Of a DNA stretch of 64,000 nt, positions 17,800 to 52,025 are shown in pieces. Source of the stretch: Candidatus Bathyarchaeia archaeon. GTDB taxonomy: Archaea > Thermoproteota > Bathyarchaeia > Bathyarchaeales > Bathycorpusculaceae. The number at the start of each line of letters is the position of its first letter. Positions within the stretch are counted from its first letter, which is position 1. The notes below the pieces were generated by a model. It was not told where the DNA came from and did no database searches. It saw only the letters and a list, made by a program, of their open reading frames with translations. The translations under genes and the position numbers were made by a program. The DNA lies in contig JBEKHN010000012.1 in the NCBI GenBank assembly GCA_050012255.1, positions 1 through 64,000 of the forward strand. Reading direction: 5' to 3'.

Positions 17800-17820
17800 G
17801 AGTGCATACATGGTGATGCT

Positions 17821-33209: not shown

Positions 33210-33328
33210 TTTTGAACCTCTAGTTTGTCTTCTGTTCCCGTGCTGATTTAAGATTTCTGTCTTGGTTTTACACTCTCCATAAAGTTTTCATGGAATTATT
33301 TATAAGTTGGCTAGGATAACATCAAAGG

Positions 33329-34105
33329 TTGAAGAAAATGAAAATTAGATACTTGGCATTGGTTGTTCTATGCCTTTCCTTCTATATCTCTTCTATAACA
33401 ATCATGATTCCTAAATGTTCGGCTCAACAAGCTTTTCCCACTGTGACGTATGATGAGTATGGATGGACATCCGACATGAAAAGATTCTCAATGACCACGC
33501 AAGATGTTGGATTGACTTTTGAAATCACCGTTTACAACAATAGCACTAAACCATTTGATAGTGCATCAGTGTCTCTCTATATCTACATTAACGTGGTAAA
33601 TAATGTCATGGTGAATAATGCCCCTCAGAGTATCAGCATCTATAATAAAATATTTACCTTTGACTCTACTAACGAGTTATATTTGCCACCTAGCGAGTCG
33701 TCTGTCTTTTTTGTCAAGGTGAAAAGAAGTTTCTCCGATACCCCCCTTGATATTGGAAGCTATACAGCGGACCTTTCCTATTCAAATTACCAAATTTCCT
33801 ATGGGGGTCAAGGAACACCAATGGGACAATATCCTTTCAATTTTCAAGTAGAAACCCCGCAGGTGCTTCAACAGAAAATAGATCAAAATCCTCAACCAAC
33901 AAGTCTTGGCTTTCTAGTTTTGGTATTCAGCATCATTGTAGTCCTAGCCATAGTCTTATCAGTTGTTATAACCCTTTTAATTGCTACTAAAACCAAGTTC
34001 CTTAATAAAACAAAACGGAAGGTGGAATTTTTCGGTTCTTTAGCTACCATCTTAACTGTGGTCTTTGCTGGTATAAGTTTGTACCTTCAGATAATAAGAT
34101 GGTAA
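33329..34105 (+). CDS. Hypothetical surface protein (signal peptide, Ig-like region, C-terminal TMs)
   Basis: Signal peptide and two C-terminal hydrophobic helices, AT-rich codons. Confidence 0.75.
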   Translation: MKKMKIRYLALVVLCLSFYISSITIMIPKCSAQQAFPTVTYDEYGWTSDMKRFSMTTQDVGLTFEITVYNNSTKPFDSASVSLYIYINVVNNVMVNNAPQSISIYNKIFTFDSTNELYLPPSESSVFFVKVKRSFSDTPLDIGSYTADLSYSNYQISYGGQGTPMGQYPFNFQVETPQVLQQKIDQNPQPTSLGFLVLVFSIIVVLAIVLSVVITLLIATKTKFLNKTKRKVEFFGSLATILTVVFAGISLYLQIIRW

Positions 34106-37520: not shown

Positions 37521-38486
37521 TTGACGAAAACGGAAGAATTGGCCAAAGGCGTTCTTGCTGGAAACCGCAGGAGCGTAGCGAGGGCTATAACCACTATCGA
37601 AAACAACGACCCTGAAGCTCAGGAACTGATTGCCAGAATCTACGCCCACACGGGAAAAGCTCACATTATAGGCTTAACGGGCGCTGGCGGCGCTGGAAAG
37701 AGCACTCTTATTGAAAAGATCGTCAAGGAATACAGGCGACGGGGGAGGACAGTGGGTGTAGTCGCCGTGGACCCTACAAGCCCGTTCACGGGCGGGGCAT
37801 TCTTGGGTGACAGGATTCGCATGCAAGAACTCTGCACCGACGAGGGCGTCTTCATACGTAGCATGGCAACCCGGAACTATGCAGGAGGAATAGCAAGGGC
37901 AACGAAAGACGCTGTGAAAGTCCTTGACGCCGCTGGAAAAGACGTGGTAATAGTCGAGACTGTCGGTGCAGGTCAATCTGAAGTCGAGATTATCAAGGTT
38001 GCACAGACAATAGTCGTCGTCCACGCCCCAGGGCTAGGAGACGAGATACAGGCGATAAAAGCCGGTGTGATGGAGATAGCCGACATTTTCGTCGTAAACA
38101 AAGCTGACCGTGAGAACGCGAATAAGGCTGTAATTGACATCCAGTCAAACTTGCAGATGAACAACAAGGAAATTCCGTGGAAACCGCCTGTTCTGAAAAC
38201 CATAGCCTTGACCGGCGAGGGTATTCTGGAGCTGGTCGACAAAATTGAAGAACACAGATGTTTCCTTGAGGGCGACCTTGAGTGCAGAAGGGTCTCATTA
38301 AGAACTAAAGCCGAGGCGGAACTCATTGACGCCATCAGAGAAAGAGTGACAGGTTCTCTGATTGAAAAGTTGAAGAAGGAAGGAAAGTTTGACGCGCTCG
38401 TCCACGAAATCATGGAAAAGAAGACAGACCCAACGTCTGCCGCTGAAAAACTTCTCAAGAAGGCTGTGCACGATGCCGAAGCTTGA
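37521..38486 (+). CDS. meaB: Mutase-associated GTPase chaperone MeaB
   Basis: GAGKST, AVDPTSP..GG.LGDRIRM, ETVG.GQSE and NKAD motifs. Confidence 0.93.
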   Translation: MTKTEELAKGVLAGNRRSVARAITTIENNDPEAQELIARIYAHTGKAHIIGLTGAGGAGKSTLIEKIVKEYRRRGRTVGVVAVDPTSPFTGGAFLGDRIRMQELCTDEGVFIRSMATRNYAGGIARATKDAVKVLDAAGKDVVIVETVGAGQSEVEIIKVAQTIVVVHAPGLGDEIQAIKAGVMEIADIFVVNKADRENANKAVIDIQSNLQMNNKEIPWKPPVLKTIALTGEGILELVDKIEEHRCFLEGDLECRRVSLRTKAEAELIDAIRERVTGSLIEKLKKEGKFDALVHEIMEKKTDPTSAAEKLLKKAVHDAEA

Positions 38487-39003
38487 AAAAGGATTGGTTC
38501 AAGTTTACACGGGGAACGGAAAAGGAAAGACTACGGCAGCTTTTGGACTTGCGCTCAGAGCGATAGGGAGAGGACTGAGAGTCTGCATAATCCAGTTTAT
38601 CAAAGGCGGGTTCGACTACGGAGAACTGTACGTAATAGACAGGCTTCCGGGCCTCAAGCTGAAAGCCTATGGCAGAGGCAAATTCGTTGACGGAAAGAAG
38701 CCTGACAAGACGGACGTGGATCTAGCGGAGGAAGCCCTAGCGACGGCTGAAAAAGCAATCAAGGACGGCGAATGCGACATAGTCATACTAGACGAAATCA
38801 ACGTGGCTCTAAGCCTCAAGCTGATAAAGACCGAGAATGTCCTAAACCTGATCAAGAAGAAACCTGCACAAGTCGAGCTGGTGTTAACTGGACGGAACGC
38901 ACCAAGCGAAATCGTTGAAGCAGCCGATTTAGTCACAGAAATGGTAGAGGTCAAACACCCGTACAGCAAGGGTTTTCATGCTCGAAAGGGAATCGAGTAC
39001 TAG
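38473..39003 (+). CDS. cobO: Cob(I)alamin adenosyltransferase (CobA/BtuR type)
   Basis: YTGNGKGKTTAAFG, QFIKG, LDEI, LTGR and KHPY...A..GIEY motifs. Confidence 0.93.
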   Translation: MPKLEKGLVQVYTGNGKGKTTAAFGLALRAIGRGLRVCIIQFIKGGFDYGELYVIDRLPGLKLKAYGRGKFVDGKKPDKTDVDLAEEALATAEKAIKDGECDIVILDEINVALSLKLIKTENVLNLIKKKPAQVELVLTGRNAPSEIVEAADLVTEMVEVKHPYSKGFHARKGIEY

Positions 39004-39037
39004 GCCCCCAAGAGAGCACTGGAGGAGTTGACCTGCC

Positions 39038-39733
39038 CTACTTCTCTTCTTTCAATGCGAGAGGGTATATTTCCTTAGCCACGTACTCCAAGTATGGCTC
39101 CTTCTCTGTCAAATTGAATATGGTCACGGATGCGTCTCGAGTTATGCCCACGACATAGCCATGCTCCCTTGACCTTGCAACTACGTACCACAGGTCACCA
39201 TGCTTGCCATAGTCCTCGAAAAGAGAAGTGTTTGTGAGGTCCGGCCCGTACAGAGACAGTTTGTCGATGTTTGGAATATCCACGTTGTCAAAGAATGTTA
39301 TCTTTGTGTCCTCAGGGTTCTTTAAGTGAAACTCTTTCAATGTTTCAGGAGAGATTCTAGCCTCCAGTACCCCACCTGCTTTTTCAAACAGTACTTCACT
39401 AAGCTTGTTTGCTATGAAATTGGCAACACGCTTCTTTTCAACTATGGTCAAGAACGTAGTACCTTCGCGTTCAGCGAAGCTAAACATTGCCTCAACTGTT
39501 CGAGGGGTAGGCAAGATCTTGCCCCTGTGGAAAACCTGAGTGACATAGTCGTGAGAATAGATGCCTCTCAACATGTTTTCCTTAGGAAGGAGACCAGTGA
39601 CCTCGGTTATGAGCGCAAGTTTGTAGTCTCCCTCTTCATAAGCCTCTTCAGTGCGATACCCTTCAAGTCTTGAAGCGATGTCCGCCACGGCAAGAGGCTC
39701 AGTCAGTTTGAAAACCTTACCAGCAACAACCAT
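39038..39733 (-). CDS. Archaeal hypothetical protein
   Basis: 231-aa ORF with host-like codon usage. It would be divergent from the SMC operon at the empty insertion site. Confidence 0.75.
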   Translation of the reverse strand: MVVAGKVFKLTEPLAVADIASRLEGYRTEEAYEEGDYKLALITEVTGLLPKENMLRGIYSHDYVTQVFHRGKILPTPRTVEAMFSFAEREGTTFLTIVEKKRVANFIANKLSEVLFEKAGGVLEARISPETLKEFHLKNPEDTKITFFDNVDIPNIDKLSLYGPDLTNTSLFEDYGKHGDLWYVVARSREHGYVVGITRDASVTIFNLTEKEPYLEYVAKEIYPLALKEEK

Positions 39734-40144
39734 TCTCGAACCCCAAGCCCTTAGTCTAGAAGGTTCTGCTTATGAAACTTTACGCTTCCAAACCTAAGAA
39801 TGCAGATTGCGATCCTTGACTCCACCTATATCTCACTGAGCATTTGTCACAGTGGCAATGGAGCTCTGTTTGTTCTTAACATAGGTTATTAGTCAACGCC
39901 ATGAACATCCATGCCGCCCATGTCCATTGCAAACGTGCCACGCACGGACCTAATCAAGTTCGAAAAGCAATCTCGAAGGATTGTGAAAATATCTTGGACA
40001 TCGAAGGTATCGAAATCCTCAGGAAAGCAGAATGCATGACCTAATCTATTTGTTGCAAAACTGTACTAATTGTTTTAATAAGAGTTATTGCGCTTTGAAA
40101 ATACACATGAACAACGTAAAAAGGTTAAAACATTTATGGGCCCT

Positions 40145-40294
40145 TATTCCGCGCGGAATATGAGGTCCTGGTCAGATGTCTCGAGAGTCCCCCTCGGATC
40201 CGAGGGGCCGCCTCGGAATAGGATCCGCGCACCTCTGAATCAGAGGGGGATAAGCTGTCAATCGGAGGGGGAGCCCCTCGAAATCAGAGGGGGA
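40145..40294. repeat. Palindrome and iteron cluster: three AATC(A/G)GAGGGGGA copies at 22-bp period plus two perfect palindromes
   Basis: Copies at 40238, 40260 and 40282. Palindromes TATTCCGCGCGGAATA (40145-40160) and CCCCTCGGATCCGAGGGG (40190-40207). Confidence 0.9.
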
Positions 40295-40308
40295 GAACTC
40301 TGCGCGCG

Positions 40309-40554
40309 CTATAGGTATCTTCTGCCTTTCAGTCTCCGACGCCACTGACTGTAAACCTCAATACTGTCCCGCATAGCATCATAGTTATTTCTCATCCGGT
40401 ACAGAGTGTTCCTAGCAGTCGTATAGTGAACTTTTATCGTGTCGGCAGCGTGCTTCAACGGGTTCTTGTACCCCTCATTCTGGGCCTTGATGATCTCCTC
40501 GATGAGTTCCCGCTGCCTCTTAGTCCACAGCAACCTGTTCGACAAAACGACCAT
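40309..40554 (-). CDS. Small HTH DNA-binding protein
   Basis: WTKRQRELI...LKHAADTIKVHYTTARNTLYR HTH-like pattern. Confidence 0.65.
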   Translation of the reverse strand: MVVLSNRLLWTKRQRELIEEIIKAQNEGYKNPLKHAADTIKVHYTTARNTLYRMRNNYDAMRDSIEVYSQWRRRLKGRRYL

Positions 40555-40752
40555 CCCGACCTCTAATGGCTATCTATAGTACATGTACCACGTTTTAAGA
40601 GTTTCTGTACCTGTCAAAACCAAACGTTAGATACTTTGAACTTCTACTCCCTGAGCAAACGGTCTTGAAGGTCATGTCCTTGGCGCCTCTGTCGAGAGCT
40701 GCTCGAGTTTCGCCTGGACTTGCTTAATCTTTTCAGAGGAATTATGCACTTG

Positions 40753-41028
40753 CTACCCCCCTGAAATTGGACTTTTCTGTCCGCTTAGCTTCTCAGCCTG
40801 CAACGCGTTGAGCCTCGTCACATTCATCAGGATCACTTCCCCACCTGCACGCATGCCGGACGTCGACGCGCAGACGTCTTCGTCTTTGTCTCTCCACTCC
40901 TCGAGTTTGTCCCATTCCCCTGGGGGCAGGGTGAAGAGGATGAAGACGCTGCGAGGTATGTCGAAGTGTCTTTTTTCTACGAAGGGGTCTTTGATCTTCG
41001 GTCCCTTCTTCTGGACCGCTGCGCGCAT
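40753..41028 (-). CDS. Hypothetical protein; the frame extends upstream into an RHH-like segment
   Basis: In-frame upstream sequence reads QVCCTVSKELLQDF...LSEAVSDLMRAAV but has no canonical start codon. Confidence 0.55.
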   Translation of the reverse strand: MRAAVQKKGPKIKDPFVEKRHFDIPRSVFILFTLPPGEWDKLEEWRDKDEDVCASTSGMRAGGEVILMNVTRLNALQAEKLSGQKSPISGG

Positions 41029-41336
41029 GAGATCACTGACTGCCTCTGATAGCCCTCCCGGATAGTGCGCATAGACGACGCGGTCCTGGAAGTCTTGAAG
41101 CAGCTCCTTTGAAACCGTGCAGCAGACCTGGGCCTCTCCTTTTAAACTGTTCTTCTTTGCTTCTTCAATGGGTTTACGGATTCCAGCTGCAAGGTCATGT
41201 AGGAGCTCACCCTGATTAGGGCGCGCGTTTTCTCCCTCCTATAGAATACTTCAAAGATATTCCCAACAGTAGTAAAAGGATAATGCTAATATATAAGAAT
41301 ATCCCTAGAGTATATCGGTGAGTCGGTGTGCAGGCC

Positions 41337-41495
41337 TTGCCGGTAAAGTTTCAAATGAGCGTCGTCCTCGTTGGAAAAAGCTTGAAAGTCACGATTCCCA
41401 AGGAGATCTGTGAGTACCTCGGTCTGAAGAAAGGCGACGTCGTGAGCCTGTGGGCCGACAACAGTCACATCATCATGGAAAAGAGGGAGTCCTGA
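41337..41495 (+). CDS. AbrB/MazE/SpoVT-family DNA-binding protein (52 aa)
   Basis: Hand translation MPVKFQMSVVLVGKSLKVTIPKEICEYLGLKKGDVV has the classic G.SL.VTIPK....LGL..GD motif. Confidence 0.85.
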   Translation: MPVKFQMSVVLVGKSLKVTIPKEICEYLGLKKGDVVSLWADNSHIIMEKRES

Positions 41496-41749
41496 CGTCC
41501 GGGGAAGTCACGGAGAACTTCGACGTAAAAGGGCATAGAACGGCCTTGTTTTCACAATTAGCCCACGTTCTAGTCGTCTCCAAGAACAAATTTGATAAGG
41601 AGTGTGCTGCCAACCGCGATCGACAGGCCTGGGGAAGACTCATCGTCACAGGGATTGAGGCGTACGCGAAGCTGCTTGAAACCGTTCAACTTGACGTCTT
41701 GGAGAAGCGTGTAAGCCAGCTTGAAGGTCGCGAGGGTGAAGCTAAATGA
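41450..41749 (+). CDS. Small helical protein with a C-terminal coiled coil (terminase-small-subunit-like by inference)
   Basis: LLETVQLDVLEKRVSQLE tail. The start is uncertain. Confidence 0.55.
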   Translation: MGRQQSHHHGKEGVLTSGEVTENFDVKGHRTALFSQLAHVLVVSKNKFDKECAANRDRQAWGRLIVTGIEAYAKLLETVQLDVLEKRVSQLEGREGEAK

Positions 41750-41952
41750 GGAGTAAGGAACTGGAGAAGCGCCTCGAGAAGCTTGAGAAAACGGTGAAGG
41801 TCAACGACAAGCCAAACATGATCCTGATCCGAGGGGAATGGTTCCCCCTCGATAATCGGCCTGAGACCATCGAAGCGGCAAAGACGACGCCTATCCCCTG
41901 GTACGGCCGCTGGTGGAGGGAGAACAACCCCCCGATAAAGGAGGAACCGTGA
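41746..41952 (+). CDS. Small hypothetical protein
   Basis: LEKRLEKLE N-terminus, with ATGA overlap with the previous gene. Confidence 0.6.
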   Translation: MRSKELEKRLEKLEKTVKVNDKPNMILIRGEWFPLDNRPETIEAAKTTPIPWYGRWWRENNPPIKEEP

Positions 41953-41953
41953 A

Positions 41954-44056
41954 ATGAGTACAGATGTAGCGATCCATTTGGTTGCGTATGACGAAGCTTC
42001 TGAAATAATTGAGCAGATGGGGTCTAACCTTTCCGCAACTTTCACTGACATTGGAGGGCGAACGCAAGACTTAGTGACAACTACTGATGGCGCGACTTCC
42101 AAGATTACAGATGACTGGAACCAGGTCAATGGTGCTGGACAGAATCTTAAGAAGACCCAAGAAGACATGCAGAGCAGTACAAGCGACACAGCAATGAGCA
42201 TGAACAGGCTGGCGCAATCCGGTGCCAACCTCTTCATAAGTTTTGAACGTGTTGAAAACGCTCAGGTAATGGTTGACAGGGCAAACCTGATGGTACAGCG
42301 AAGCACGCAAACCTGTGAAAAAGCTCAAACCGCGTACAACGACGCCGTTGCAAAGTACGGGCCGAACAGTGCCGAGGCGAAAGCCGCTCTTGACAGGCTT
42401 GCTATCGCCCAGGAAGCCGTTGTGGTCTCGCAGGAAAGGGCCGATATGTCAGCGAGAAACTTCAACAACACGATAATGTCGAGCGCACTGATGGTCATTC
42501 CCAGTTTCATCTCAATCATTGGAACCGTCAACAGTCTCCTGCCTGAAACAACCGCGGAAACTTTCAGTTTAGGCGCCGCCATAGACTTTGCGACTGGGCC
42601 CATCGGATTAGCGATAATCGCTGTCAGCGCCATGACCGCTGCTCTCGTGCTTATCCCAGGCGCCATGGACGCGGTTGTCAACGCGTTTGAAACTGCTGGA
42701 AACTTTTTCGTAGGCATCGCAAATGACATAGGCAATGCTTGGGGCGGCTTCGTCGGACTCTTCACAGGCGGAAACCAGCAAGCCGAAAAGTCAATAAATC
42801 CTCTGACGGCCTCTGTTGAGGACTACACGAAAGCCGTAAAAGACTCGACAACTGCGACTGATGATTACGTAGGGTCTATTAACACTTTGAACTCTACCGT
42901 CCAAAACCTATCAACAACTGTCCAAGGCGCGGGACAGGTTTGGGGTCCTTTTTCGCAAGCGGAAGAGACTGCGAGGCGGACAACGGAAGACTTCACGGTA
43001 AACGGACAAAAATATATGGCGGACATGGAGGAGACGTGGAGGGAAGCGCAAGCATCAGCTAACGTTAACCTTGGACAGATCAAGGCAGAATATGAGGAAG
43101 AGATAGATACTGGCCAATTTACAAAGGCAACCGATACCCTTCTCAAGTTCGCGGAACAGTATGGCTTACTCGTGCCTGAAGCTAAAAAAATCGTCTTGGA
43201 CTTCAAAGCTGTTCAAGCATCGATTCCAGAGTCAATTGAGGAGCAGCTGATTGGAAAGGCTCAGGCGGATCTTCAGGCGTTTCAAGACTGTGTAACAGGC
43301 AAGTTCGCAGGCATGCAAGGCGATTCTTCAGGCTACGTGAAACAGCTTGTTACCGATACGAATGATTTGATCAGCAGGGGACTCGTGGGCCAAGCTCAAG
43401 ATAACATTGCAGCCTACGTGAAATGCGCGACTGACAAGCATGATACACTCGTCTCCGATATCGAGGCTGACTTGGCAAAGCTGAAGGTGGACTACGCGGC
43501 CGGTGCCACTGATCTTGCGCCGATGATAAAGCAGCTTGAAGAGTTTAAACTTGCAGCAACATTCGGCGAGCCTGGGGTAGACATTTTCGCTGCTATAAAA
43601 CTGGCAGGCACCACGGCCAGTGAAGTTGCTGCTGAAACAGAAACGGCAACGACGCAGATCACAGCTTCGTTCCAAGGCATGGCGAACAATGCGATCTTGC
43701 ATGCTCAGAGACTTCAGGATAGTCTTGTCGGACAGAGCATCTGGACTGACATGCTGACTAAGATGGAAAGTACGACGGAGAAATCAGTCGCTAAGATCCA
43801 GGGGCAGTTCCAGATGCTTCAGCCAGAAGGCCTCATCGGAGGCGGCTTCGGCGTTCCAGAAGCTCTCCCCAGGGCCGGAGGAGGAAAGGTGATCAACGCG
43901 CCAATCAGGATCACTATTGAAGGAAACGCTGATAGGGCGACTGTTGATTTGATGAAGAAAGAGATTTTTGCGGCTTTGAAGTCAGTTGTTGTTGAGCCTA
44001 CAAGCAGCAATGCGCCCACTACGTCGAAGAGGATAAGGCAGGGAAGTACGTTCTAG
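41954..44056 (+). CDS. Tail tape-measure-like protein (700 aa)
   Basis: N-terminal I.L.A.D.AS motif, Ala/Gln/Thr-rich helices, central hydrophobic GPIGLAIIAV segment, LVGQSIWTDM motif and C-terminal I.I.I.G.AD. Confidence 0.78.
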   Translation: MSTDVAIHLVAYDEASEIIEQMGSNLSATFTDIGGRTQDLVTTTDGATSKITDDWNQVNGAGQNLKKTQEDMQSSTSDTAMSMNRLAQSGANLFISFERVENAQVMVDRANLMVQRSTQTCEKAQTAYNDAVAKYGPNSAEAKAALDRLAIAQEAVVVSQERADMSARNFNNTIMSSALMVIPSFISIIGTVNSLLPETTAETFSLGAAIDFATGPIGLAIIAVSAMTAALVLIPGAMDAVVNAFETAGNFFVGIANDIGNAWGGFVGLFTGGNQQAEKSINPLTASVEDYTKAVKDSTTATDDYVGSINTLNSTVQNLSTTVQGAGQVWGPFSQAEETARRTTEDFTVNGQKYMADMEETWREAQASANVNLGQIKAEYEEEIDTGQFTKATDTLLKFAEQYGLLVPEAKKIVLDFKAVQASIPESIEEQLIGKAQADLQAFQDCVTGKFAGMQGDSSGYVKQLVTDTNDLISRGLVGQAQDNIAAYVKCATDKHDTLVSDIEADLAKLKVDYAAGATDLAPMIKQLEEFKLAATFGEPGVDIFAAIKLAGTTASEVAAETETATTQITASFQGMANNAILHAQRLQDSLVGQSIWTDMLTKMESTTEKSVAKIQGQFQMLQPEGLIGGGFGVPEALPRAGGGKVINAPIRITIEGNADRATVDLMKKEIFAALKSVVVEPTSSNAPTTSKRIRQGSTF

Positions 44057-44352
44057 AGACAAGTAGTCGTGTCAACACTCAGTATCTCGTCTTCTTCAAA
44101 GTCCGCCGCGGACCGGTTCCTGAGCAACTGTTCATAGGCCCTCGGATAGCTGATTTGCAAGTCTCTGAGACGCCCGTTGTTGGCGTCTTTCCTGTTTTCG
44201 AAGGTCCCAACTACTTTGCCATAACTTTTGGGCGGCCGCTCGCCTTGGCGTATGATCCAGTAGTCGCAGAAACCAAAGGCCTCGCATTTCAACACGTAGA
44301 CTCGGTCGAAGAATTGCGAGATTTCCTCAAGAGTTGATATTCGGCGCTGCAA
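44053..44352 (-). CDS. Hypothetical protein
   Basis: Last gene of the helicase operon. Confidence 0.55.
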   Translation of the reverse strand: MQRRISTLEEISQFFDRVYVLKCEAFGFCDYWIIRQGERPPKSYGKVVGTFENRKDANNGRLRDLQISYPRAYEQLLRNRSAADFEEDEILSVDTTTCL

Positions 44353-44365
44353 GTTTTTCGACGTA

Positions 44366-44866
44366 TCACTCGCCTCCTCTAAGTCTAGCCCGTCGCGCGC
44401 GCTCTTTCGCCTTCGCCTCTTCTCGGATTTCGGCCTGATGGTCCTTGGACTCCTTCACGAGTTTGAGCGCGCACACGTATCCTGCGCGCGCGGCCTCGGC
44501 ATCCTGACAAACTTTGACTGTTTCATTGTGGCTTTCATGAGCCCTATGGAGTCTTCGAGCGTTCTCAATCACTTCAGTTGTTGAGGGCCCTTGTTCCTGT
44601 TCTCCCTCCGGCTGTGGCTTTTCGAAAGCGAAAGTTGAACCTAGAGTCTCAGAGACTTCGGGCGGCGGCGCCGGAAAACGCTTCTCATATAGGGCCCGTA
44701 TACGCTCTCGCTCTTCCGGAGTTGCGATTTGAGGCCTAGCTTGCTTTGGCACTTTTGAGTCTAGCGCGCGCCTGCATTTGTTGCAGCCGCTGGGACATTG
44801 ACCTATCAGAGGCGTAAATTCAAGGGCTAAGGTGACCCGGTCAGTTCCAAGTCTCGTTTCATTCAT
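44366..44866 (-). CDS. Hypothetical protein with a CxxxCxxC motif
   Basis: Overlaps the upstream gene and is co-oriented with it. Confidence 0.6.
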   Translation of the reverse strand: MNETRLGTDRVTLALEFTPLIGQCPSGCNKCRRALDSKVPKQARPQIATPEERERIRALYEKRFPAPPPEVSETLGSTFAFEKPQPEGEQEQGPSTTEVIENARRLHRAHESHNETVKVCQDAEAARAGYVCALKLVKESKDHQAEIREEAKAKERARRARLRGGE

Positions 44867-45143
44867 GTTTCAATATCACCTCCCAGTTGCGTAATAGACT
44901 CAATTGTTTATCGTCTCCCAGGAGGAGCAGCGTGCAGGGCTTGTGGATCCTGCCGAGGCTGCCCGCCTCGAATCTGACAAGGCGCCCCTTAGCTTCCCAG
45001 CCTGCGCTTCGCACCGTCACCCATCGGCCGACGAAATAGACTAGAAGATTGCGCTCCTCAAAGACTATGACGTCCTTTTCGTACTCTTCTCTTTTGCTTA
45101 TCGCACTGTCCTTGGACAAGGGGATACAGAACCGGCTTGTCAT
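44859..45143 (-). CDS. Small beta-rich (Sm/SH3-like) hypothetical protein
   Basis: VGRWVTVR...AKGRLVRFE pattern, with ATGA overlap with the helicase gene. Confidence 0.6.
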   Translation of the reverse strand: MTSRFCIPLSKDSAISKREEYEKDVIVFEERNLLVYFVGRWVTVRSAGWEAKGRLVRFEAGSLGRIHKPCTLLLLGDDKQLSLLRNWEVILKHE

Positions 45144-46687
45144 GCGTCGTTCAACCTCTTCTCAAGTTCAATTCCACACTCTTCACAGAGGAGGCCCCAA
45201 CTCCCATTACGACAGGTCGCTTGCCATTCCATGCGCCCTCGAAAACCACACGCTACGCACTTGTCCTGATAGTTCATGGTCAGTCGTTCGAGCTTCAGCG
45301 TTTGACTGGCTAGGGCTTCTAAATTGCCTTCACTACCTTCACTTTGTTCACTTCCTTCACTCTTTAGCCCTTCTTCAGAGGCTAATTTTTCCTTAGTCCG
45401 TGAAGGAAGTGAAGGTTGTGAGGGAAGTGAAGGTGTTTCAGAAGGGGGTTCATACCGGGCCTTTAGTCTTTCAATCAGCTTAATGTCCCAGAAGAAGCCG
45501 GACTTACCTCCTCCGAACCGGCACTTCTCAAAGCCCAAAGCGGCGACCTTACGTCCCACTTGAGTGGTCTTCAGCTGCTCCTTCTCTGACAGGCCCACGT
45601 TGAAAGTGTCCGTTATCGCCTGGGTCGACAGCTTTCCTTCTTTGATATCCTTTTCGCATTTGAGCACAGCGTCGAACATCCGTGCCTCGATGCTGGCCTG
45701 CTCCTCGTCCAAGCGGCTCTTTGTGATCTGCTTCATGCAGGTTATGAGGCGGGCCCTTATGTCTTCTGTAGGAGCAACTTGTAGAAGACTCACGAAAAGT
45801 TCAATTACCCGAGCATTTTTGAACTGACCGTTTAGCCAGGACATCTCAAAGAGCCCAGGTTCTTTCGCCAAGTTTTTGAAGCGGTACATCAGCAACCTGT
45901 TTCTCAGGTCCTGGGCCTTCTCCTCGTCTATGAAGAGGTTGATCTGCTTCACGTTCCGTGTCATCGTCGTTATCACGCAGCGGCTTTGAAGCGTAGAGGC
46001 GAGTTCCTGAGTTCCGGCGAGAACCTTGAAACCGAAGGTGTCGAACATGGCGATCTGAGGGCAACCCTCTTCGACCTTTTCTATTCTGATCGCGTACTGA
46101 CCTTTCCGGTAGCCGCTGTTAAGCAAGGCAAGTACTTCGACCATTGCTTCTCGGTTGTAGATCTCACATTCGTCCAGCAGAAGAACGGGATGCCAGGCCT
46201 CAAGGGCCCGGAACAGGCTTGCAGCACTCATTGAAGAAGCTATGACTCCTCGGTAACAGATTCTACCGAAGCATTCGAGCGCGCGGGTTTTGCCGCTTGC
46301 CATGGGCCCGAGGAAAAAGGCGTAGGGCACAACGGTGAACTCTTCAGTTCTCCAAGTGGCCAGGGTGAAGGCGGCGTAAACATCGTAGAAGAGGTCGTTC
46401 GCAATGTCCAAGTGTTCAACGTAGAAGGCCCGGACGTCAGAGAACAATTGGATCTCGCTTTTATAGTCTTTCGGCCGGGTTGCAGCCGGCCAGGGAAGGC
46501 GCTTCAGAGGAACATACTCTTCTCCCTCATGATAGAAATGATGTGGGTCGCTGGGAGCTTCAAACTTGCTCTCGTTTCTGTCGAAGATGACATAGCACCC
46601 GTTCGTTACCTGTTCAAAAATGACGGTTGGAAAAGCGAAGCCAGGCGTCGACGTCGGCTTGACTTTCTCCTCCTTCTCTTTCGCCAC
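45140..46687 (-). CDS. Replication helicase/ATPase (DUF3631-like AAA+) with C-terminal wHTH and zinc finger
   Basis: Walker A GPMASGKT, Walker B LLLDE, LLNSGY, SRC arginine finger and CxxC...CxxC. Confidence 0.8.
   Translation of the reverse strand: MAKEKEEKVKPTSTPGFAFPTVIFEQVTNGCYVIFDRNESKFEAPSDPHHFYHEGEEYVPLKRLPWPAATRPKDYKSEIQLFSDVRAFYVEHLDIANDLFYDVYAAFTLATWRTEEFTVVPYAFFLGPMASGKTRALECFGRICYRGVIASSMSAASLFRALEAWHPVLLLDECEIYNREAMVEVLALLNSGYRKGQYAIRIEKVEEGCPQIAMFDTFGFKVLAGTQELASTLQSRCVITTMTRNVKQINLFIDEEKAQDLRNRLLMYRFKNLAKEPGLFEMSWLNGQFKNARVIELFVSLLQVAPTEDIRARLITCMKQITKSRLDEEQASIEARMFDAVLKCEKDIKEGKLSTQAITDTFNVGLSEKEQLKTTQVGRKVAALGFEKCRFGGGKSGFFWDIKLIERLKARYEPPSETPSLPSQPSLPSRTKEKLASEEGLKSEGSEQSEGSEGNLEALASQTLKLERLTMNYQDKCVACGFRGRMEWQATCRNGSWGLLCEECGIELEKRLNDA
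45327..45433. repeat. Two inverted arrays of four 9-bp iterons (CCTTCACTN) inside the helicase gene; putative origin
   Basis: 45327-45362 forward and 45398-45433 inverted, separated by a 35-bp spacer. Confidence 0.88.
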
Positions 46688-46721
46688 GGCCGTGCACTCC
46701 CTTGACCCGCGCGTTAGTTTG

Positions 46722-46814
46722 CTATTTTACGGTCCCCTTCAAAATCGCAAGTGCTTCCTGCAGGATCTCTTTCGTCTCCCAGATGAGTTCGCGGAGAGTC
46801 TCACGGTCCGTCAT
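46722..46814 (-). CDS. 30-aa peptide MTDRETLRELIWETKEILQEALAILKGTVK
   Basis: Hand translation, with GGAG upstream. Lies between the RHH gene and the helicase. Confidence 0.45.
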   Translation of the reverse strand: MTDRETLRELIWETKEILQEALAILKGTVK

Positions 46815-46827
46815 TTCGTCAACTCCT

Positions 46828-46974
46828 TCACTCGTTCAAGTCTTTGGCGATTTTTTCTCTGACTGTTTGTCTCAGGAAGTTGCTTCTGTCGAGTCCTTGT
46901 TTCTCCGCGTACTTGTCGATTTGCTCGATAATTGCGTTCTTCTCTTTGAACCCGATAACCTTGTCCGCTTTCAT
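46828..46974 (-). CDS. CopG-like ribbon-helix-helix protein (48 aa)
   Basis: Hand translation MKADKVIGFKEKNAIIEQIDKYAEKQGLDRSNFLRQTVREKI. Confidence 0.8.
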   Translation of the reverse strand: MKADKVIGFKEKNAIIEQIDKYAEKQGLDRSNFLRQTVREKIAKDLNE

Positions 46975-47056
46975 CGCGTTTCAACTCAATTTAAAAGCTT
47001 ATAACGGAAGAATCGTATACGGTTTAGTGGAACTCGGTTCCAGTAGAGGACGCTAT

Positions 47057-47476
47057 TTGAAAATCAGATGGCAAACTCACCGAAAGTGGCTCTCTCAAAC
47101 TAAGGTCTTTGAGGCTTTCAAGAATGAGAAAGGGGCAGTTGAGGCAAAGACCTGGTCTGAGTTGGAGGCTAAGGTTCCAAGGGCTACTCTCTCCCGAACT
47201 CTGAGGGATTTGATGAAGGAAGGTAACGTGCAAGCCAGTTTACGCCTTGGCAAGAATGGCAAACTAGAAACCGTCTACAAACTAGTGCACGAGTGGCAGA
47301 CAGTCAAACATCACGTGGTTCAAGCCTCCTACAAGGGGAAACCATTCGGAACGTATGAAGGGATGATTTACATGAGACGGGGAAAACTCCATTGCAGACT
47401 GCCTGAAGACGAAAAGAAAAGATTATTGGATGACCAGAAGAGGGCCCAAGGGGCCAGGTCCACTTCTGAGATCTAA
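47057..47476 (+). CDS. Winged-helix transcriptional regulator
   Basis: KTWSELE..VPRATLSRTLRDL...G.V......VYKL. Divergent from the RHH gene. The start is inferred. Confidence 0.8.
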   Translation: MKIRWQTHRKWLSQTKVFEAFKNEKGAVEAKTWSELEAKVPRATLSRTLRDLMKEGNVQASLRLGKNGKLETVYKLVHEWQTVKHHVVQASYKGKPFGTYEGMIYMRRGKLHCRLPEDEKKRLLDDQKRAQGARSTSEI

Positions 47477-48562
47477 CTACTCGCTTTCTTCTTTCAGTCT
47501 CCTCTCGAGTTCTTCAACCCTTTTGAGCAGCCCCTCGATCGCGGCTGCCTTGCGCAGGTCCTCCTGGCCTAGGGCCTGGCCGCCCTGGAGGTTCAAGAGC
47601 TCGATAATGCCGGCGTCGGTCAAGAGTTGTCTGAGCTTTTCGTCCTCGGGCATGTAGGCGCCGTTGAACCTCAACTGGTGCCCGGTCATTTTGTCGATCA
47701 GGTCGTCGCTGACCTTGTTTCTCAGCTGCGCGCTGAACCAGAGGCGGCAACAGTGAAAACTCAGCCTTTTTCCGTTATCTGTCAACCCGGCTTTTGCGCA
47801 TAGGGCCTTGAAAATCTTGTTCGGCTGCCCATTCTCAACGTGTTTCTCCTTGTACCCTGGGAACAGCCAGGGACCCTTAACGGTTGCCACGTACGTCTTG
47901 AGCATTGCTTGAACTTCAGGCGTCAAGACTAGGAGGATCTCACTGTTTGTTTTAGGCCTCACCAACTCGACAAATTCAAGCCTTACGCCGTCAAGTTTTC
48001 CCTCGAAATCTGTGACCTTCAACCCTGCAACCGTGCTTTCATCTTGACCCATTAATCCGAGGGCCAAAACACACTTGTCACGCAGGTCCGCGAGGTCGAA
48101 TAACCGCCCTATCTCAGGGCCCATCAGCTGGTGTTTCTTCCTTTCAATCCGAGGCCGCTGCATCCGCACGTCTTTCTTTCGGAATTTTCTAAGGCTAATC
48201 GGCAGATTGTAAAAAGCGAAGAAACTCTGCACCACCGTCACCGCGTGTTTGGCCGTCAACTGACTCAGCGTCTTCTCCTTGAACCGTCCAGTCGTGCCTC
48301 CGGCTCTGCCCTTGACGCTGCCCGTCAGTTTCGCCTTGCTTTCCATGAGTTGTTGATAGTACGCGAAGACCCTGCGGTTGTACGTGTCTGATTTGTCAGG
48401 ATCTTGTAGTAACTGGCGTTGCTCAGCGATCATCTCGGTTCCAGTTTTGCCAGTGAACTGCTCGAAACGTTTAAAGGAGGACTCATACGTTTGTTTCGTT
48501 GCGATAGAGGTGAAAGTCTCTAGCCATTCTCGCACTTTCGGGTCGTTTGTCACGCACTTCAC
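47477..48562 (-). CDS. Tyrosine recombinase/integrase
   Basis: RDK.VL, RPKT, FHCCR (HxxR), MTGH and AY catalytic Tyr. The box I Arg position is Asp. Confidence 0.92.
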   Translation of the reverse strand: MKCVTNDPKVREWLETFTSIATKQTYESSFKRFEQFTGKTGTEMIAEQRQLLQDPDKSDTYNRRVFAYYQQLMESKAKLTGSVKGRAGGTTGRFKEKTLSQLTAKHAVTVVQSFFAFYNLPISLRKFRKKDVRMQRPRIERKKHQLMGPEIGRLFDLADLRDKCVLALGLMGQDESTVAGLKVTDFEGKLDGVRLEFVELVRPKTNSEILLVLTPEVQAMLKTYVATVKGPWLFPGYKEKHVENGQPNKIFKALCAKAGLTDNGKRLSFHCCRLWFSAQLRNKVSDDLIDKMTGHQLRFNGAYMPEDEKLRQLLTDAGIIELLNLQGGQALGQEDLRKAAAIEGLLKRVEELERRLKEESE

Positions 48563-48670
48563 CGATAGAAGTGTTATAACAAACGGACATATATGCTTTA
48601 CCTATTTGAAAGTGTAAGAATAAGAGAATTTTCACCTTTATTATCTACCACACACTGGGAAAAATCATCA

Positions 48671-50635
48671 ATGCTGATTCAAGAGGTAATCCTCGAGAAC
48701 TTCATGAGTTACGAGTACGGCAGAGTGCCCTTTAAACCAGGCGTGAATGTTGTCTGTGGACCAAACGGTTCGGGAAAGTCGTCCCTTCTTCTGGCCATAT
48801 CCGTGGCTCTAGGGCAGTCTTACACTGAACGCTCTAAGAAACTGAGCGACCTCATACGTTGGGGCAAAGACCAAGCCCGGGTGACCTTGGTCCTGGATAA
48901 CACCAGGAGGGGAAAGAACAGGCCAGTGCCAAGATTCAACAAAGACCAGATTTTTCTCACACGCGTCCTGAGGCGTGACGGAACGTACTGGTTCTCTCTT
49001 GAAAACCATGCCGTCAACAAGAACGATGTTGAAAGACTCTTGGGAAGGTTGGGCGTTGACCCGGACAACATACTCATCATAATGCATCAGAACATGGTTG
49101 AACAGTTCACTGTGCTTTCTACCCAGGAGAAACTGCGAATAGTAGAAGCAGCAGTTGGACTCGAGCCCTATCGTGAAAATGTTTTGCAAGCACAGAAAAA
49201 GCTGACCCGAATACTAAGCCAGGAAGAGTCGATGAGTAAACTCTTGGAGTCAGCCGAGCAGACATTGAATTACTGGAGAGGACAATACGATAGGTACCAA
49301 GAGAAAAAGCAGTTACAGTCGAAAAGAAGGTTCCTAGAAAGAGAGCTAGCGTGGGCCGAAGTTGCAAGAAGGGAAGAAACGGTAAGGCAGCTGGAGGCTG
49401 AGAGAAAAAAGCAACAAGGCATTCTTGACCAGATCGAAGAAAAGACAAGGTCGGCAAAGGGTCACCTGCAGACTCAGGAACATGAGCGTGTAAAGCTGAA
49501 GGACGACTGGAGACAACTTTTTGACGAACGCCTGAGCTTCGAACGTCAGAAGGCAGGAAACTCATCGACCGTTCCGCTGTATGAACAACTTTTGAGAGAA
49601 ACAGCGACGCTAGAGATGCTCAGTCAAAACCCTGGCAAGGATACAACTCTTGAAACTGGGCAGGTTTCGAGGAAAACAGTGCAGATCAAACTCCTTAGGA
49701 GTGAAGAACTCAAAGAGTTGATACAAAATTCGAAAGAACACGCCTCAAAATTGGACGCTGAAATAGAAAGAAATCAGATGAAGACGAGGAACTGGGAAGA
49801 AGCAACCGAAAAGGTGAGTACTCAAATCTTGAACCTTCGCATCGAATTGGCGCTAATGCAATACCGAACGGAGAGCTCCGCGGCCAACGTCAAAGAACTT
49901 GAAAGATCCCTGAGTGAGGCGAAAACTCGTCTGGGTGAAACAGTAAAGAAGGCTGAGCAAGTCGGAGCCAGAATTGCAGTAATAGAGGAATTTGGCAAAA
50001 TCCTCGACGAGATACGCGTCACAGAAGGACACTTGGCTGCACTTTCAGATGTCTCAGAAGACATTGAACGCATGTACGAGTCCTATTCAAAACTCTATCT
50101 TGAACTGAAAGAGAAAGCCCAGCTTGTTGCCGAAAACCGTGAAAAAACACTGGAAGAGGTGAAGACGAGAATGCAGTCTTGGCGAACAGTCATTGGCAAC
50201 CTTCTCGACCACGTCAACTTGGAGTACCAGAAAACCTTAACCCAAGCTCAAGCCGTAGGAGAGGTTAGACTCGCCAACGGCCATGACATGGAGACAGCCG
50301 GACTCGAAATTCTCGTGGGGTTCAAAGGCGGAAGACCAGTCCCTCTTGACGCTTACACGCAGAGCGGTGGAGAAAGAACAACCGCAACGATGAGCTTTCT
50401 GCTGGCCTTACAGCAACACGTCCGTTCCCCGTTTCGCGCCGTCGACGAATACGATATCCACATGGACCCGAAAAACCGTGAACTCGTCGCTCAGATGCTC
50501 GTCTCAAGAGTTAACGATTCAAACGCACAGTACATCGTGATAACTCCAAGCCAAGTAACGTTCACAAAAGAAGGAACAAACATAATCACTGTTCAAAACA
50601 TTGAAGGTAAATCGATAATCAGAGAGGTGGCGTAA
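48671..50635 (+). CDS. Short Smc5/6-related SMC ATPase (ClsN/Arcadin-4-like)
   Basis: LENFMSY, GPNGSGKSS, coiled coil and QSGGER...LQ....PFRAVDEYDIHMD. The start at ATG 48671 is inferred. Confidence 0.88.
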   Translation: MLIQEVILENFMSYEYGRVPFKPGVNVVCGPNGSGKSSLLLAISVALGQSYTERSKKLSDLIRWGKDQARVTLVLDNTRRGKNRPVPRFNKDQIFLTRVLRRDGTYWFSLENHAVNKNDVERLLGRLGVDPDNILIIMHQNMVEQFTVLSTQEKLRIVEAAVGLEPYRENVLQAQKKLTRILSQEESMSKLLESAEQTLNYWRGQYDRYQEKKQLQSKRRFLERELAWAEVARREETVRQLEAERKKQQGILDQIEEKTRSAKGHLQTQEHERVKLKDDWRQLFDERLSFERQKAGNSSTVPLYEQLLRETATLEMLSQNPGKDTTLETGQVSRKTVQIKLLRSEELKELIQNSKEHASKLDAEIERNQMKTRNWEEATEKVSTQILNLRIELALMQYRTESSAANVKELERSLSEAKTRLGETVKKAEQVGARIAVIEEFGKILDEIRVTEGHLAALSDVSEDIERMYESYSKLYLELKEKAQLVAENREKTLEEVKTRMQSWRTVIGNLLDHVNLEYQKTLTQAQAVGEVRLANGHDMETAGLEILVGFKGGRPVPLDAYTQSGGERTTATMSFLLALQQHVRSPFRAVDEYDIHMDPKNRELVAQMLVSRVNDSNAQYIVITPSQVTFTKEGTNIITVQNIEGKSIIREVA

Positions 50636-51462
50636 TGCAGTCCAGAAAAGCACATGAGAAGCTCGGCAGAGAGAAGCTTCAACGCATCATCGAAACGTGC
50701 AGGTCCGTTGAAGAACGATCGCTTGACCCGTTCTTGATAGACCTTAAGGAGAACATCAGTACGGTCAGAGAATACTTTCCAGAATGGAAGATTCCAGAAG
50801 ACCTTTGCTTGGACGCTGAAACCATACACCGCCTAGCCTCCGTAGTCAAGCTTCAAAGCGAGTGGGTCAAACATCGGTCAACCTCACTCTACACAGACCC
50901 CTTTGTTCTGGAAGAAAAACTCAGGCGACTAGACAAGGAGGAGATCGTTAGAACCTTTATCAAAGCTTGGCATCCATTGGTTGAGTGGGAGCAGATATCA
51001 CTTCACAGCCTGGCCGAAGCCGTCAGGTACTGGAACAGTCTGGTGCCACTGAGAGAAAGGTGGAAGGAAGCCCCTCCGGCCGAAGTTGGCTCAGGCTCAG
51101 CAACGCGCGAAGAGCTTGTTCGCGAAAGGATTCTGCGAGATAAAGCCTTCTCCGAGGAACTCGAGAACTTCTGGCTTGAATTGAAGAACGTCGTCGCCCA
51201 GAAGGGTCAGAACGGAAAGATACGATACTGGGATTTCATCGGCGCAGAATCTTACGAGGAAACCGTGAACAGAGCTTTCATGACAAGCTTCCTCGTCACA
51301 TATGGCTATGCCACCTTGGAAATTCACCCGTTGGAAGAAGAAATGTATATTGTACCCTACCAAAAACTGCTGGTTAAGACGGGAAAAGAGCAGCTGGTGT
51401 CAATACCCATCTCAGTTTCAGCGACTGACTGGCAGAGGTGGAGGCGAGGAGAGCTGAAGTGA
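50635..51462 (+). CDS. Kleisin (ScpA/Nse4-like) subunit, putative
   Basis: LDPF.IDL N-terminal motif, C-terminal wHTH-like SFLV..GY..L, translationally coupled to the SMC gene. Confidence 0.6.
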   Translation: MQSRKAHEKLGREKLQRIIETCRSVEERSLDPFLIDLKENISTVREYFPEWKIPEDLCLDAETIHRLASVVKLQSEWVKHRSTSLYTDPFVLEEKLRRLDKEEIVRTFIKAWHPLVEWEQISLHSLAEAVRYWNSLVPLRERWKEAPPAEVGSGSATREELVRERILRDKAFSEELENFWLELKNVVAQKGQNGKIRYWDFIGAESYEETVNRAFMTSFLVTYGYATLEIHPLEEEMYIVPYQKLLVKTGKEQLVSIPISVSATDWQRWRRGELK

Positions 51463-52025
51463 GCAAGAGAAAAGCAACGTATGCCAGCAAACTGAAAAGA
51501 GCAACTCACATGCTCTTCTTCAAACGACACGCAAAACCTGGTGTTAAGGGTTGGGAACTGCGTAAGGCGTTGGGCGCTGATTATCCAAAAGTGTTGAAGA
51601 TTATGGATGACTACCTGAAGGGCCTTGACCTCGAAGTCAAAACCGTGTTCGAAGAAGGAAAGCAAGTTGAAAAGCCGAGTGTCGAACAGCTTGACAAGGC
51701 CAGATTCTACGTAGCGCTACGAGGGGAATTGGTGCCTAAAGAAGCAAAGATGATAGGGTGGCGGATAGACGACTTTGCAGGACTGGCAGTCGCCATTGCC
51801 TACGTCTTGTCCAAGAAGGGAAAGGCGCCGAGAGAAGAGGTTGAGCAACTGTTGCGAGAAAAGATCCCAGGATGGAAAGTGGGCCTTAACGTTGACAGGT
51901 ACGTCAGGTATGGTTACTTGGCTGAAGACGAAAACGGACAGCTTTACTTGGATTGGAGAACTCGCGCAGAAGTCGACCAAAAAGCTTTGATTGAACTTCT
52001 TTTGGCCGTAGAGACAAAAACCTAG
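51459..52025 (+). CDS. Kite (ScpB/Nse1-3-like) tandem winged-helix subunit, putative
   Basis: Two wHTH-like halves and ..YGYL....GQLYL.WRT.AE motif. Third gene of the SMC operon. Confidence 0.6.
   Translation: MSKRKATYASKLKRATHMLFFKRHAKPGVKGWELRKALGADYPKVLKIMDDYLKGLDLEVKTVFEEGKQVEKPSVEQLDKARFYVALRGELVPKEAKMIGWRIDDFAGLAVAIAYVLSKKGKAPREEVEQLLREKIPGWKVGLNVDRYVRYGYLAEDENGQLYLDWRTRAEVDQKALIELLLAVETKT

Follow-up and report, generated by a model that had tools for sequence, protein, structure and literature searches.

The subject of this report is a 64,000-nucleotide stretch of DNA (hereafter called the window) from a Candidatus Bathyarchaeia archaeon, corresponding to positions 1 to 64,000 of contig JBEKHN010000012.1 in assembly GCA_050012255.1. 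Embedded between conserved host genes of the window is a small mobile element that carries an orphan gene for a tape measure protein (TMP) of the type encoded by head-tailed viruses. The source assembly (called G000 below) is a metagenome-assembled genome consisting of 38 contigs and 2.35 Mb, with 98.5% completeness and 5% contamination.

The TMP gene and its operon

The TMP gene occupies positions 41954 to 44056 of the plus strand, where a sequence-only reading of this DNA had placed it, and is an intact open reading frame (ORF) of 700 amino acids with a GGAGG sequence located 10-14 nt upstream of its ATG codon. The N-terminal segment VAIHLVAYDEAS, which that reading regarded as typical of TMPs, is located at residues 5-16 and is conserved throughout the family with the consensus VEIHLxAYDEAS. 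Likewise, the LVGQSIWTDM sequence corresponds to residues 591-600, wherein S595, W597, T598, and M600 are invariant in an alignment of 10 sequences. The composition is rich in alanine (13.3%), threonine (9.4%), and glutamine (6.3%), as had been claimed. An AlphaFold model generated with 10 homologues is nearly all helix at residues 4-620, with low confidence (mean predicted local distance difference test (pLDDT) score of 40.9). Two hydrophobic stretches (approximately residues 173-197 and 206-240; Kyte-Doolittle value of at least 1.6 over 19 amino acids) agree with the proposal of a hydrophobic hairpin, but both fall within its first third and not at its center. A C-terminal beta segment is not evident, as the model yields a coil for residues 621-660 and a helix for residues 661-676 with low confidence. 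Thus, the window protein has the hydrophobic segments and, according to this model, appears to have the long, mainly alpha-helical build that are expected of TMPs.

The ORF is far above chance as judged from its homologues. No Pfam family is matched above its cut-off, and the protein matches the TMP family phrog_34082 of the PHROG collection (E=1.7e-5). Among aligned family members, 14 of 23 match phrog_1272 (also a TMP family; best E=7.7e-18), and many further TMP families of this collection are matched by others. A profile search of the PDB gave weak top matches (E of approximately 6e-4 to 8e-4), the second of which is the phage TMP gp57 of entry 6v8i (E=7.7e-4). The family includes 41 homologues recovered by a word-indexed search and 418 cluster representatives at E<=0.001. 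In related loci from Bathyarchaeia genomes, IMG/VR, and metagenomes, the genes recur in the co-directional order F4-F1-F2-TMP-F5-F6-F10. The F-numbered families are labels made in this analysis, with F1 and F2 being the chaperone-position families and F5, directly after the TMP gene in proviruses, holding the position of the distal-tail gene. An HK97-type major head gene is present a few kb upstream of the TMP array (e.g. L006:5147-6040, phrog_1650, E=2.6e-15). In addition, 31 of the 37 other loci with a TMP ORF match at least two of 23 structural-family hidden Markov models (HMMs), and the window matches none. It is this gene context that settles the identity of the family as TMPs. Profile searches match the protein best to viral TMP families and not to S-layer, chemoreceptor, or conjugation proteins, which bears out the homology proposed earlier. 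By sequence, then, the window protein is homologous over its full length to the TMPs that head-tailed proviruses of Bathyarchaeia encode, and proviruses of this kind in this archaeal class are described in the available text of a published report (PMC11705971).

The TMPs of the proviruses at loci L002/L006, L001/L008, and L031 share with the window protein full-length collinearity, the N-terminus, the pair of hydrophobic segments, the S[IV]WTDML block, and a C-terminal VVEPTS..KRIR motif. The placement of the genes differs. The provirus copies lie between F1-F2 and F5, after chaperone-like genes and before distal-tail or baseplate genes, in proviruses of 36.7-38.3 kb, whereas the window copy stands alone on an element of 8.5 kb. 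Compatibility with the tails of other viruses had been proposed to leave conserved termini and a divergent middle, and this pattern is seen. Relative to the nine closest homologues, identity is 55-80% for residues 1-170 in eight of the nine (the ninth is truncated at its N-terminus), 43-78% for residues 421-700, and only 22-37%, with insertions and deletions, for residues 271-420. However, the pattern is probably non-discriminating because the alignment suggests that a variable middle is a feature of the entire family, and it is probably weak evidence for tail compatibility.

The TMP gene is the last of four plus-strand ORFs (41328-44056) that, from their sequence, look like one operon. A TATA-box-like motif (TATATAAG) located on the same strand at positions 41290-41297, 31-38 nt upstream of the first of these ORFs, is a putative archaeal promoter. 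The first gene (41328-41495), which had been overlooked in the sequence-only reading along with the boundaries of the element, encodes a 55-amino-acid DNA-binding protein of the AbrB/MazE (SpoVT) type (PF04014, E=9.5e-7, 29.1 bits versus a cut-off of 24.7). This protein is 57% identical over 61 amino acids to a counterpart in L117, one of two other compact TMP-bearing elements described below, and has a homologue in the other, L003. Two small coupled ORFs upstream of the TMP gene, which that reading did report, are both present on the plus strand. One (41450-41749) encodes the 99-amino-acid protein F28, whose true start is possibly further downstream. It overlaps by 4 nt (ATGA) with a 68-amino-acid ORF (41746-41952), which is followed by a single-base spacer before the TMP start codon. 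This latter ORF is an ORFan with no family match and no homologue of 37-119 amino acids among 5.8 billion proteins. The suggestion that the upstream ORFs are classical assembly chaperones found no support, given that the F1 and F2 HMMs have no match in G000 and that the 68-amino-acid ORF has no homologue. A frameshift fusion of the G/GT tail-chaperone type is ruled out by a TAA directly before the ATG of the 68-amino-acid ORF in the -1 frame and by the lack of a slippery heptamer.

F28 is modelled from its alignment (A4) as two helices with a pLDDT of 77.5. This model is a generic helical hairpin for which a Foldseek search of viral structures produced no match at E<=0.001. In the ESM Atlas, F28 is found near DUF8136 clusters (score 0.94-0.95), which serves as a lead and nothing more. 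Homologues of F28 adjoin the TMP gene in L003 (41% identity) and L117 (46%), such that the two are linked in three of three compact elements, and F28 is matched in 18 of 400 other Bathyarchaeia genomes (E<=0.01). Co-folding of F28 with the TMP (alignment A2) returned a score of 0.00 in both runs, which is evidence for neither side. We rejected a toxin-antitoxin interpretation of the AbrB/MazE-like gene and F28 because the L117 copies are approximately 7 kb apart and because F28 is a helical hairpin. Elsewhere, F28-like genes head a cassette in L118, L120, L122, and L124 that continues with ORFs of approximately 220-260 and 180-190 amino acids and an F8-like ATPase of approximately 206-231 amino acids, and similar orders are present in L121 and L126. 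The cassette of L120 adjoins an integrase-like gene. An F28 homologue in L118 is instead the first gene of a tail-like array whose last ORF (620 amino acids) has no match to the TMP HMM.

An 8.5-kb mobile element

The limits of the element were set by comparison with empty sites. DNA from the congeneric genomes G001 and G007 aligns to window positions 38000-40082 and then jumps to 48619, with 92-96% identity, and the empty site reads AATAAGGG. Accordingly, the corrinoid adenosyltransferase gene and the SMC-like gene are spaced by approximately 1.07 kb in these two genomes versus 9.6 kb in the window genome. A contig from sequencing run X2, which belongs to another study, joins position 40076 to 48619 and thereby skips 8542 bases, with 8 letters shared. 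The 8-bp direct repeat AATAAGAG is present at positions 40077-40084, where it represents an attL core or a target duplication, and again as the attR core at positions 48619-48626, at the 5' end of the host SMC-like gene. This repeat was missed by a direct-repeat search with an 11-nt seed in the region 38800-48800. Because the empty sites are exact and the repeat flanks the insert, the insert is a discrete mobile element of 8,542 bp (40077-48626). The source run, a DNA assembly, is the only run with the whole stretch from 39600 to 49100, which it carries in a single 13.4-kb contig, and none of the runs listed as containing the element is an RNA run.

The host genes upstream of the element encode methylmalonyl-CoA mutase, MeaB, and the corrinoid adenosyltransferase, and a gene for a 231-amino-acid protein (39038-39733) is also a host gene rather than part of the element. 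Downstream is the gene for the SMC-like ATPase. The insertion point is the 5' end of a conserved three-gene block (48593-52025) composed of a 680-amino-acid SMC_N/AAA ATPase, a 275-amino-acid protein with a sub-threshold match to Nse4_C (kleisin-like), and a 195-amino-acid ORF. The element also contains the first seven codons of the SMC-like ORF as annotated.

The largest gene of the minus-strand block encodes a 515-amino-acid P-loop NTPase (45140-46687) that is likely a replication helicase with a DUF3631-like fold. Its Walker A (GPLASGKT) and Walker B (LLLDETE) motifs are kept in the consensus of 25 homologues, and its Atlas model resembles DUF3631 and primase-helicase clusters with template modelling scores of 0.53-0.74 among the ten matches listed. 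A 361-amino-acid tyrosine integrase (PF00589, E=2.9e-9, 37.4 bits versus a cut-off of 27.1; phrog_1, E=7.9e-13) is encoded on the same strand at positions 47477-48562, 57 nt from the right repeat. Three further minus-strand ORFs, with lengths of 94 (44859-45143), 166 (44366-44866), and 99 (44053-44352) amino acids, have no family match, and the last of these ends the block convergently with the TMP operon. At the left side of the element, two additional minus-strand ORFs encode a 91-amino-acid protein without a family match (40753-41028) and an 81-amino-acid protein (40309-40554) that is a weak candidate for a DNA-binding regulator, with only sub-threshold Pfam matches. Adjacent to the latter, at positions 40229-40297, are two copies of a 25-nt unit spaced 44 nt apart (direct-repeat family D2). 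Each copy holds the palindrome CCTCTGA..TCAGAGG, and the repeat may be an origin, an integrase arm site, or a terminator.

Pieces of related elements are present in two other sequencing runs. Contigs from runs X3 and X4 are approximately 87-90% identical to positions 40309-40660 of the window. Run X4, which represents sediment from another study, also contains high-depth contigs that diverge by approximately 6-13% over positions 47548-49100 (the integrase and the SMC-like junction) as well as over three regions of small ORFs, including 40309-40660 and 44594-45063, in the latter of which short contigs differ at 6-13% of positions. No X4 contig at 85% identity or greater covers the helicase gene or most of the TMP gene. 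An element related to that of the window, with different cargo, may occupy the same site elsewhere. Both runs hold just pieces of such elements (85-95% identity), and therefore the missing coverage of the TMP gene in them is uninformative.

Two other observations concern the window beyond the element. A single minus-strand ORF of 1272 amino acids (53009-56827) contains RNA polymerase Rpb1 domains 1-5, whereas many archaea encode the largest subunit of RNA polymerase in two separate genes. There is also a local dip in G+C content at positions 32001-34000 (0.39 versus 0.46-0.52 elsewhere in the window).

Origins of the element and its relatives

The description of the TMP gene as an orphan in the sequence-only reading holds for the window and for the whole assembly. 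When all ORFs from 13 related loci were compared with the window by tblastn, the TMP gene alone was matched. The same search of G000 added just host-like or non-structural families and one 66-amino-acid match of a small provirus ORF (C9:36820-37014). Across all stop-to-stop frames of G000, the 23 structural-family HMMs produced no structural match other than the TMP. Specifically, PF05065 (Phage_capsid), PF17289 (Terminase_6C), and PF04860 (Phage_portal) have no match in G000, and each is found in four to five of 14 control genomes. Neither the element nor the 98.5%-complete genome therefore yielded genes for capsid, portal, terminase, tail-tube, or baseplate proteins. A crude k-mer scan of G000 found no CRISPR array.

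The backbone of the element has relatives of its own. More than 200 homologues of the 515-amino-acid helicase were found, and we compared 13 Bathyarchaeia loci that carry helicase relatives with 36-72% identity. The helicase gene usually adjoins that of a tyrosine integrase, and BLAST clustering picked out an integrase-family gene in eight of these 13 loci. The typical order in the relatives is a small gene (H3), the helicase, and an integrase (e.g. L084:8371-9609, PF00589, E=7.9e-22). The window element resembles these helicase-integrase modules in having a helicase homologue near a tyrosine integrase, a short insert, and direct repeats, and differs in that its integrase belongs to another subfamily and is located upstream of the helicase. 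No TMP homologue was detected in any of the 13 helicase loci (tblastn, E<=0.01). The helicase is likewise absent from two proviruses (36.7 and 38.3 kb) that are rated 100% complete, and IMG/VR contains no close relative of it (best match 29% identity). Decay in situ of a large provirus was consequently rejected as an origin, since the relatives of the backbone are small modules without a TMP and the complete proviruses lack the helicase. Because the backbone is a small integrative element with TMP-less relatives, the TMP appears to have been gained rather than left over. The simplest history, judged from these gene comparisons, would be that a small plasmid-like integrative element picked up the TMP operon.

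Two other compact elements carry a TMP gene. L117 (G422:C130), where the search with F28 had its best match, is a 9.34-kb element located beside a tRNA-His gene, with an 18-bp direct repeat at positions 7777 and 17118. It encodes a 432-amino-acid integrase, a 752-amino-acid TMP, a F28 homologue, and an AbrB-like protein, and all its ORFs besides those for the TMP and the integrase are 182 amino acids or shorter. None of the 10 ORFs tested from L117 matches a PHROG head, packaging, or tail family, and nine of these, including the TMP, match no PHROG family. The surrounding region (G422:C130:17500-37000, positions 7716-18448) has two integrases of the same family (432 and 424 amino acids; 52% identical), each just upstream of a copy of the 18-bp repeat, and this arrangement suggests a tandem array of two integrative elements in which the TMP carrier comes first. 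L003 resides in G003, a genome of the same genus as the window genome, and is a 10.75-kb element bounded by a 20-bp repeat of the 5' end of tRNA-His. Its genes encode F1, F2, a 605-amino-acid TMP, F28, an AbrB-like protein, a Mu-F-like domain protein, and an integrase, and capsid, portal, and terminase families are unmatched among the ten ORFs tested. Only the AbrB-like, F28, and TMP genes are common to all three compact elements. In 20 further TMP loci, most of which are provirus-like, F28 and the AbrB-like gene have no BLAST match. On a metagenome contig, L034 (3049-19730), an integrase of the window family (25% identity) is accompanied by tRNA-Thr, a 683-amino-acid TMP from the sister clade, and other ORFs of fewer than 300 amino acids. 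A 15-bp repeat at positions 3054 and 19716 may bound a 16.7-kb element in this case.

A tree of 39 non-identical TMPs (FastTree, 489 trimmed columns) assigns the TMPs of the three compact elements to three separate clades, in each case amid provirus TMPs. The window TMP forms a clade of six with those of L030, L002, L001, L031, and L007 (support 0.98), the L003 TMP groups with L035 and L004 (support 0.85), and the L117 TMP groups with L169 (support 0.995). These placements point to independent origins of the TMPs in the three elements from separate clades. The root-to-tip distance of the window TMP, measured from the outgroup, is 1.137 compared to 1.03-1.16 for its provirus clade-mates, and at the 53 positions that do not vary among nine relatives, the protein departs at two versus zero to seven for the others. 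Hence, the TMP sequence bears no sign of decay, a result that would be expected for kept function and for recent capture alike.

Possible roles of the lone TMP

The orphan TMP on a bounded mini-element is a solid observation, and a satellite function for this element is a well-motivated hypothesis. We consider the best interpretation, with a probability of roughly 40%, to be that of a satellite-like element whose own TMP is built into the tails of a helper virus. During replication of a head-tailed helper in the cell, the element would excise and use its own helicase to replicate. It would also make its own TMP, around which the tail tube and tip proteins of the helper would assemble. Tail length corresponds to approximately 0.15 nm per TMP residue, and the chimeric tails would therefore measure approximately 105 nm for 700 amino acids versus approximately 109-117 nm for the 729-783-amino-acid TMPs of the nearest proviruses. 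A channel of the element's own making would then serve for injection by particles containing its DNA. Helper dependence, packaging, and incorporation of the TMP into tails are each proposed by analogy with known satellites. A helper would have to come from outside the genome because none was found in G000.

The closest analogy is provided by the PLEs, which are satellites of Vibrio cholerae that exploit phage ICP1. They give the swapping of a TMP into helper tails, which the sequence-only reading had proposed, an experimental precedent in bacteria. PLEs are approximately 18 kb in size, about twice that of the window element. According to the available text of the report on their tails (10.1101/2025.01.29.635557), all PLEs encode an alternative TMP along with a chaperone and a baseplate hub. 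This TMP is selectively built into chimeric tails that are 10 nm shorter than those of the helper, and its deletion cuts transduction by 96-99.9%. As far as that text describes them, PLEs and the window element are both small integrative elements with their own integrase and replication functions and without genes for tail tube, sheath, or fibre, and the window element has no virion gene besides the TMP. In both cases the TMP is shorter than its viral counterpart (582 versus 677 amino acids for the PLE, and 700 versus 729-783 amino acids for the window). The PLE TMP is distant from that of its helper (20% identity), whereas the window TMP is 55-62% identical to that of the nearest known provirus. 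The window element also differs in having an archaeal host, in lacking a recognisable chaperone, hub, or capsid-remodelling gene and a detected helper, and in being known here from its genes alone.

Other satellites provide partial parallels. EPIP satellites of Mycolicibacterium carry a TMP and have a tail length that differs from that of the helper, as described in the accessible part of the corresponding report (PMC12822802). The same text assigns them a small terminase, adaptor, stopper, scaffold, capsid protein, and serine integrase, none of which is found in the window element. Among archaeal satellites, pSSVi, pSSVx, and the SRCEs (10.1101/2025.02.15.638363) accompany spindle-shaped viruses and have genes for capsid proteins or ATPases. 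NMV2S is a putative satellite of an Asgard head-tailed virus for which no structural gene is mentioned in the available text (10.64898/2026.08.12.739948), and we estimate its size at approximately 3.8 kb from the 15.2-kb four-unit concatemer given there. From these partial descriptions, all of these archaeal elements resemble that of the window in combining a plasmid-derived replication module with an incomplete or absent set of virion genes. However, none is reported to carry a TMP in the literature found on archaeal satellites.

Candidate helpers possibly exist in the lineage, as judged from related genomes. The nearest TMPs (55-62% identity) belong to a pair of proviruses in G007, which is of the same genus, and the host flank of the provirus L007 has 95-96% DNA identity to contigs C6 and C7 of G000. 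The homology of G000 with four proviruses (L006, L007, L008, and L031) begins at one base, C6:107179, within the last approximately 164 codons of an ABC-ATPase-like gene (F8), of which G000 keeps just the C-terminal fragment at this position. For L007, homology continues at 95-96% through two tandem integrase-like genes (F13), and the corresponding G000 region is C6:107179-109453 and C7:1-1014. From these alignments, C6:107179 looks like an attachment site, or a scar, of this virus family in the lineage.

Several points weigh against the satellite interpretation. Outside the TMP gene, the element and four compared proviruses have no DNA in common. G000 yielded neither a helper provirus nor any further virion gene, and the genomes with L117 (G422) and L003 (G003) yielded no second TMP of the family. 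A packaging signal, small terminase, or capsid-size factor is unrecognised in the element, whose 8.5-kb genome is approximately one-quarter the size of the 36.7-38.3-kb proviruses, and packaging is thus unexplained. The TMP is unaccompanied by a recognisable tail assembly chaperone or baseplate hub, whereas PLEs carry both. Moreover, the nearest sampled provirus TMP is just 55-62% identical by sequence, which makes compatibility with known tails hypothetical. The 68-amino-acid ORF lacks homologues, F28 is also found beside ABC-ATPase-like genes, and the three compact elements are a small set that was found via the very features that define it.

The most serious competing explanation, although we regard it as unlikely, is that the TMP is a functionless passenger. 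In this scenario, a small integrative plasmid took a piece of a virus (the regulator, F28, and the TMP) by illegitimate recombination, and the ORF is intact because the event was recent. The lack of any other virion gene in the element and of a helper in G000 would fit such an accident, as would the ORFan status of the 68-amino-acid ORF. An intact ORF with a normal branch length is also what a recent functionless capture would leave, since tests of branch length and conserved positions do not split this outcome from maintained function. Nevertheless, the block in question forms a clean operon that brings along a TATA-like motif, a regulator, and a GGAGG sequence ahead of the TMP gene, and the TMP is complete at both conserved ends without an attached fragment of F2 or F5. 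The 2.7-kb operon also accounts for about one-third of a very small element. In addition, the trio of regulator, F28, and TMP recurs in two other bounded elements whose integrases and sites differ and whose TMPs belong to different clades, which makes selection likelier than repeated independent accidents. Even less probable is an artefact, wherein the locus reflects misassembly or misbinning, or is part of a complete provirus whose remaining genes are elsewhere. Such problems are conceivable for a 38-contig metagenome-assembled genome with 5% contamination, and viral contigs are often lost in binning. We consider this explanation highly improbable, however, given that the element is inside a 71.6-kb contig between conserved host genes, that both junctions are base-exact via empty sites in two related genomes and an independent run, and that the source run spans the entire insertion in one contig.

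The remaining explanations give the TMP a function other than the satellite role. One is antiviral interference, in which the foreign TMP enters or blocks tail assembly of an infecting virus to yield defective tails, such that the host population and the unpackaged element are both protected. TMPs are a known point of blockage, as the Tab protein is described as targeting the TMP in the available text of its report (PMC10884400) and Rta of PLE11 acts on the TMP of ICP1. The window TMP resembles provirus TMPs at its ends, with a different and shorter middle, and no packaging function was found in the element, both of which suit this role. We nonetheless judge it distinctly unlikely. None of the 10 element proteins scanned matches a PADLOC defence family, no TMP decoy is described in the literature found on the blocking of tail assembly, and a structural protein of 700 amino acids would be costly relative to the small proteins known as inhibitors. 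This idea also overlaps with that of a satellite, since satellites usually interfere as well. A role outside tails, for example as a membrane-inserting conduit or a coiled-coil scaffold for transfer of the element, draws on the two hydrophobic segments, the long helical build, and the absence of every other tail gene from the element. Exaptation of this sort seems quite improbable, because the protein is collinear over its full length with provirus TMPs, keeps both conserved ends including the C-terminal motif, and changes at a rate equal to theirs, and because the 8.5 kb contain neither a transfer ATPase nor any other gene for conjugation.

We tentatively propose a broader hypothesis, in which the three compact elements would represent an undescribed class of mini-satellites (8.5-11 kb) of head-tailed viruses in Bathyarchaeia. 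In such elements the TMP would be the only virion gene and would be accompanied by an AbrB-type regulator and F28, with at least three captures by different backbones from different virus clades, for the formation of chimeric tails and control over delivery of the element's own DNA. If true, tailed viruses of Archaea would for the first time have a known satellite system with a structural gene, and it would be the most minimal kit known for tail hijacking. Satellites with their own TMP were shown experimentally just in 2025, and in bacteria alone. Even if the TMP is a mere passenger, the locus still documents clean capture of a viral gene by a plasmid-like element. If the satellite interpretation holds, the element would be a sequence-defined candidate for the study of satellite-helper biology in an uncultured and globally abundant class of archaea, and a minimal test case for determining which part of a TMP decides tail choice. 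The AbrB-like gene, F28, the lone TMP, and the integrase would then serve as a marker set for finding further elements of this kind.

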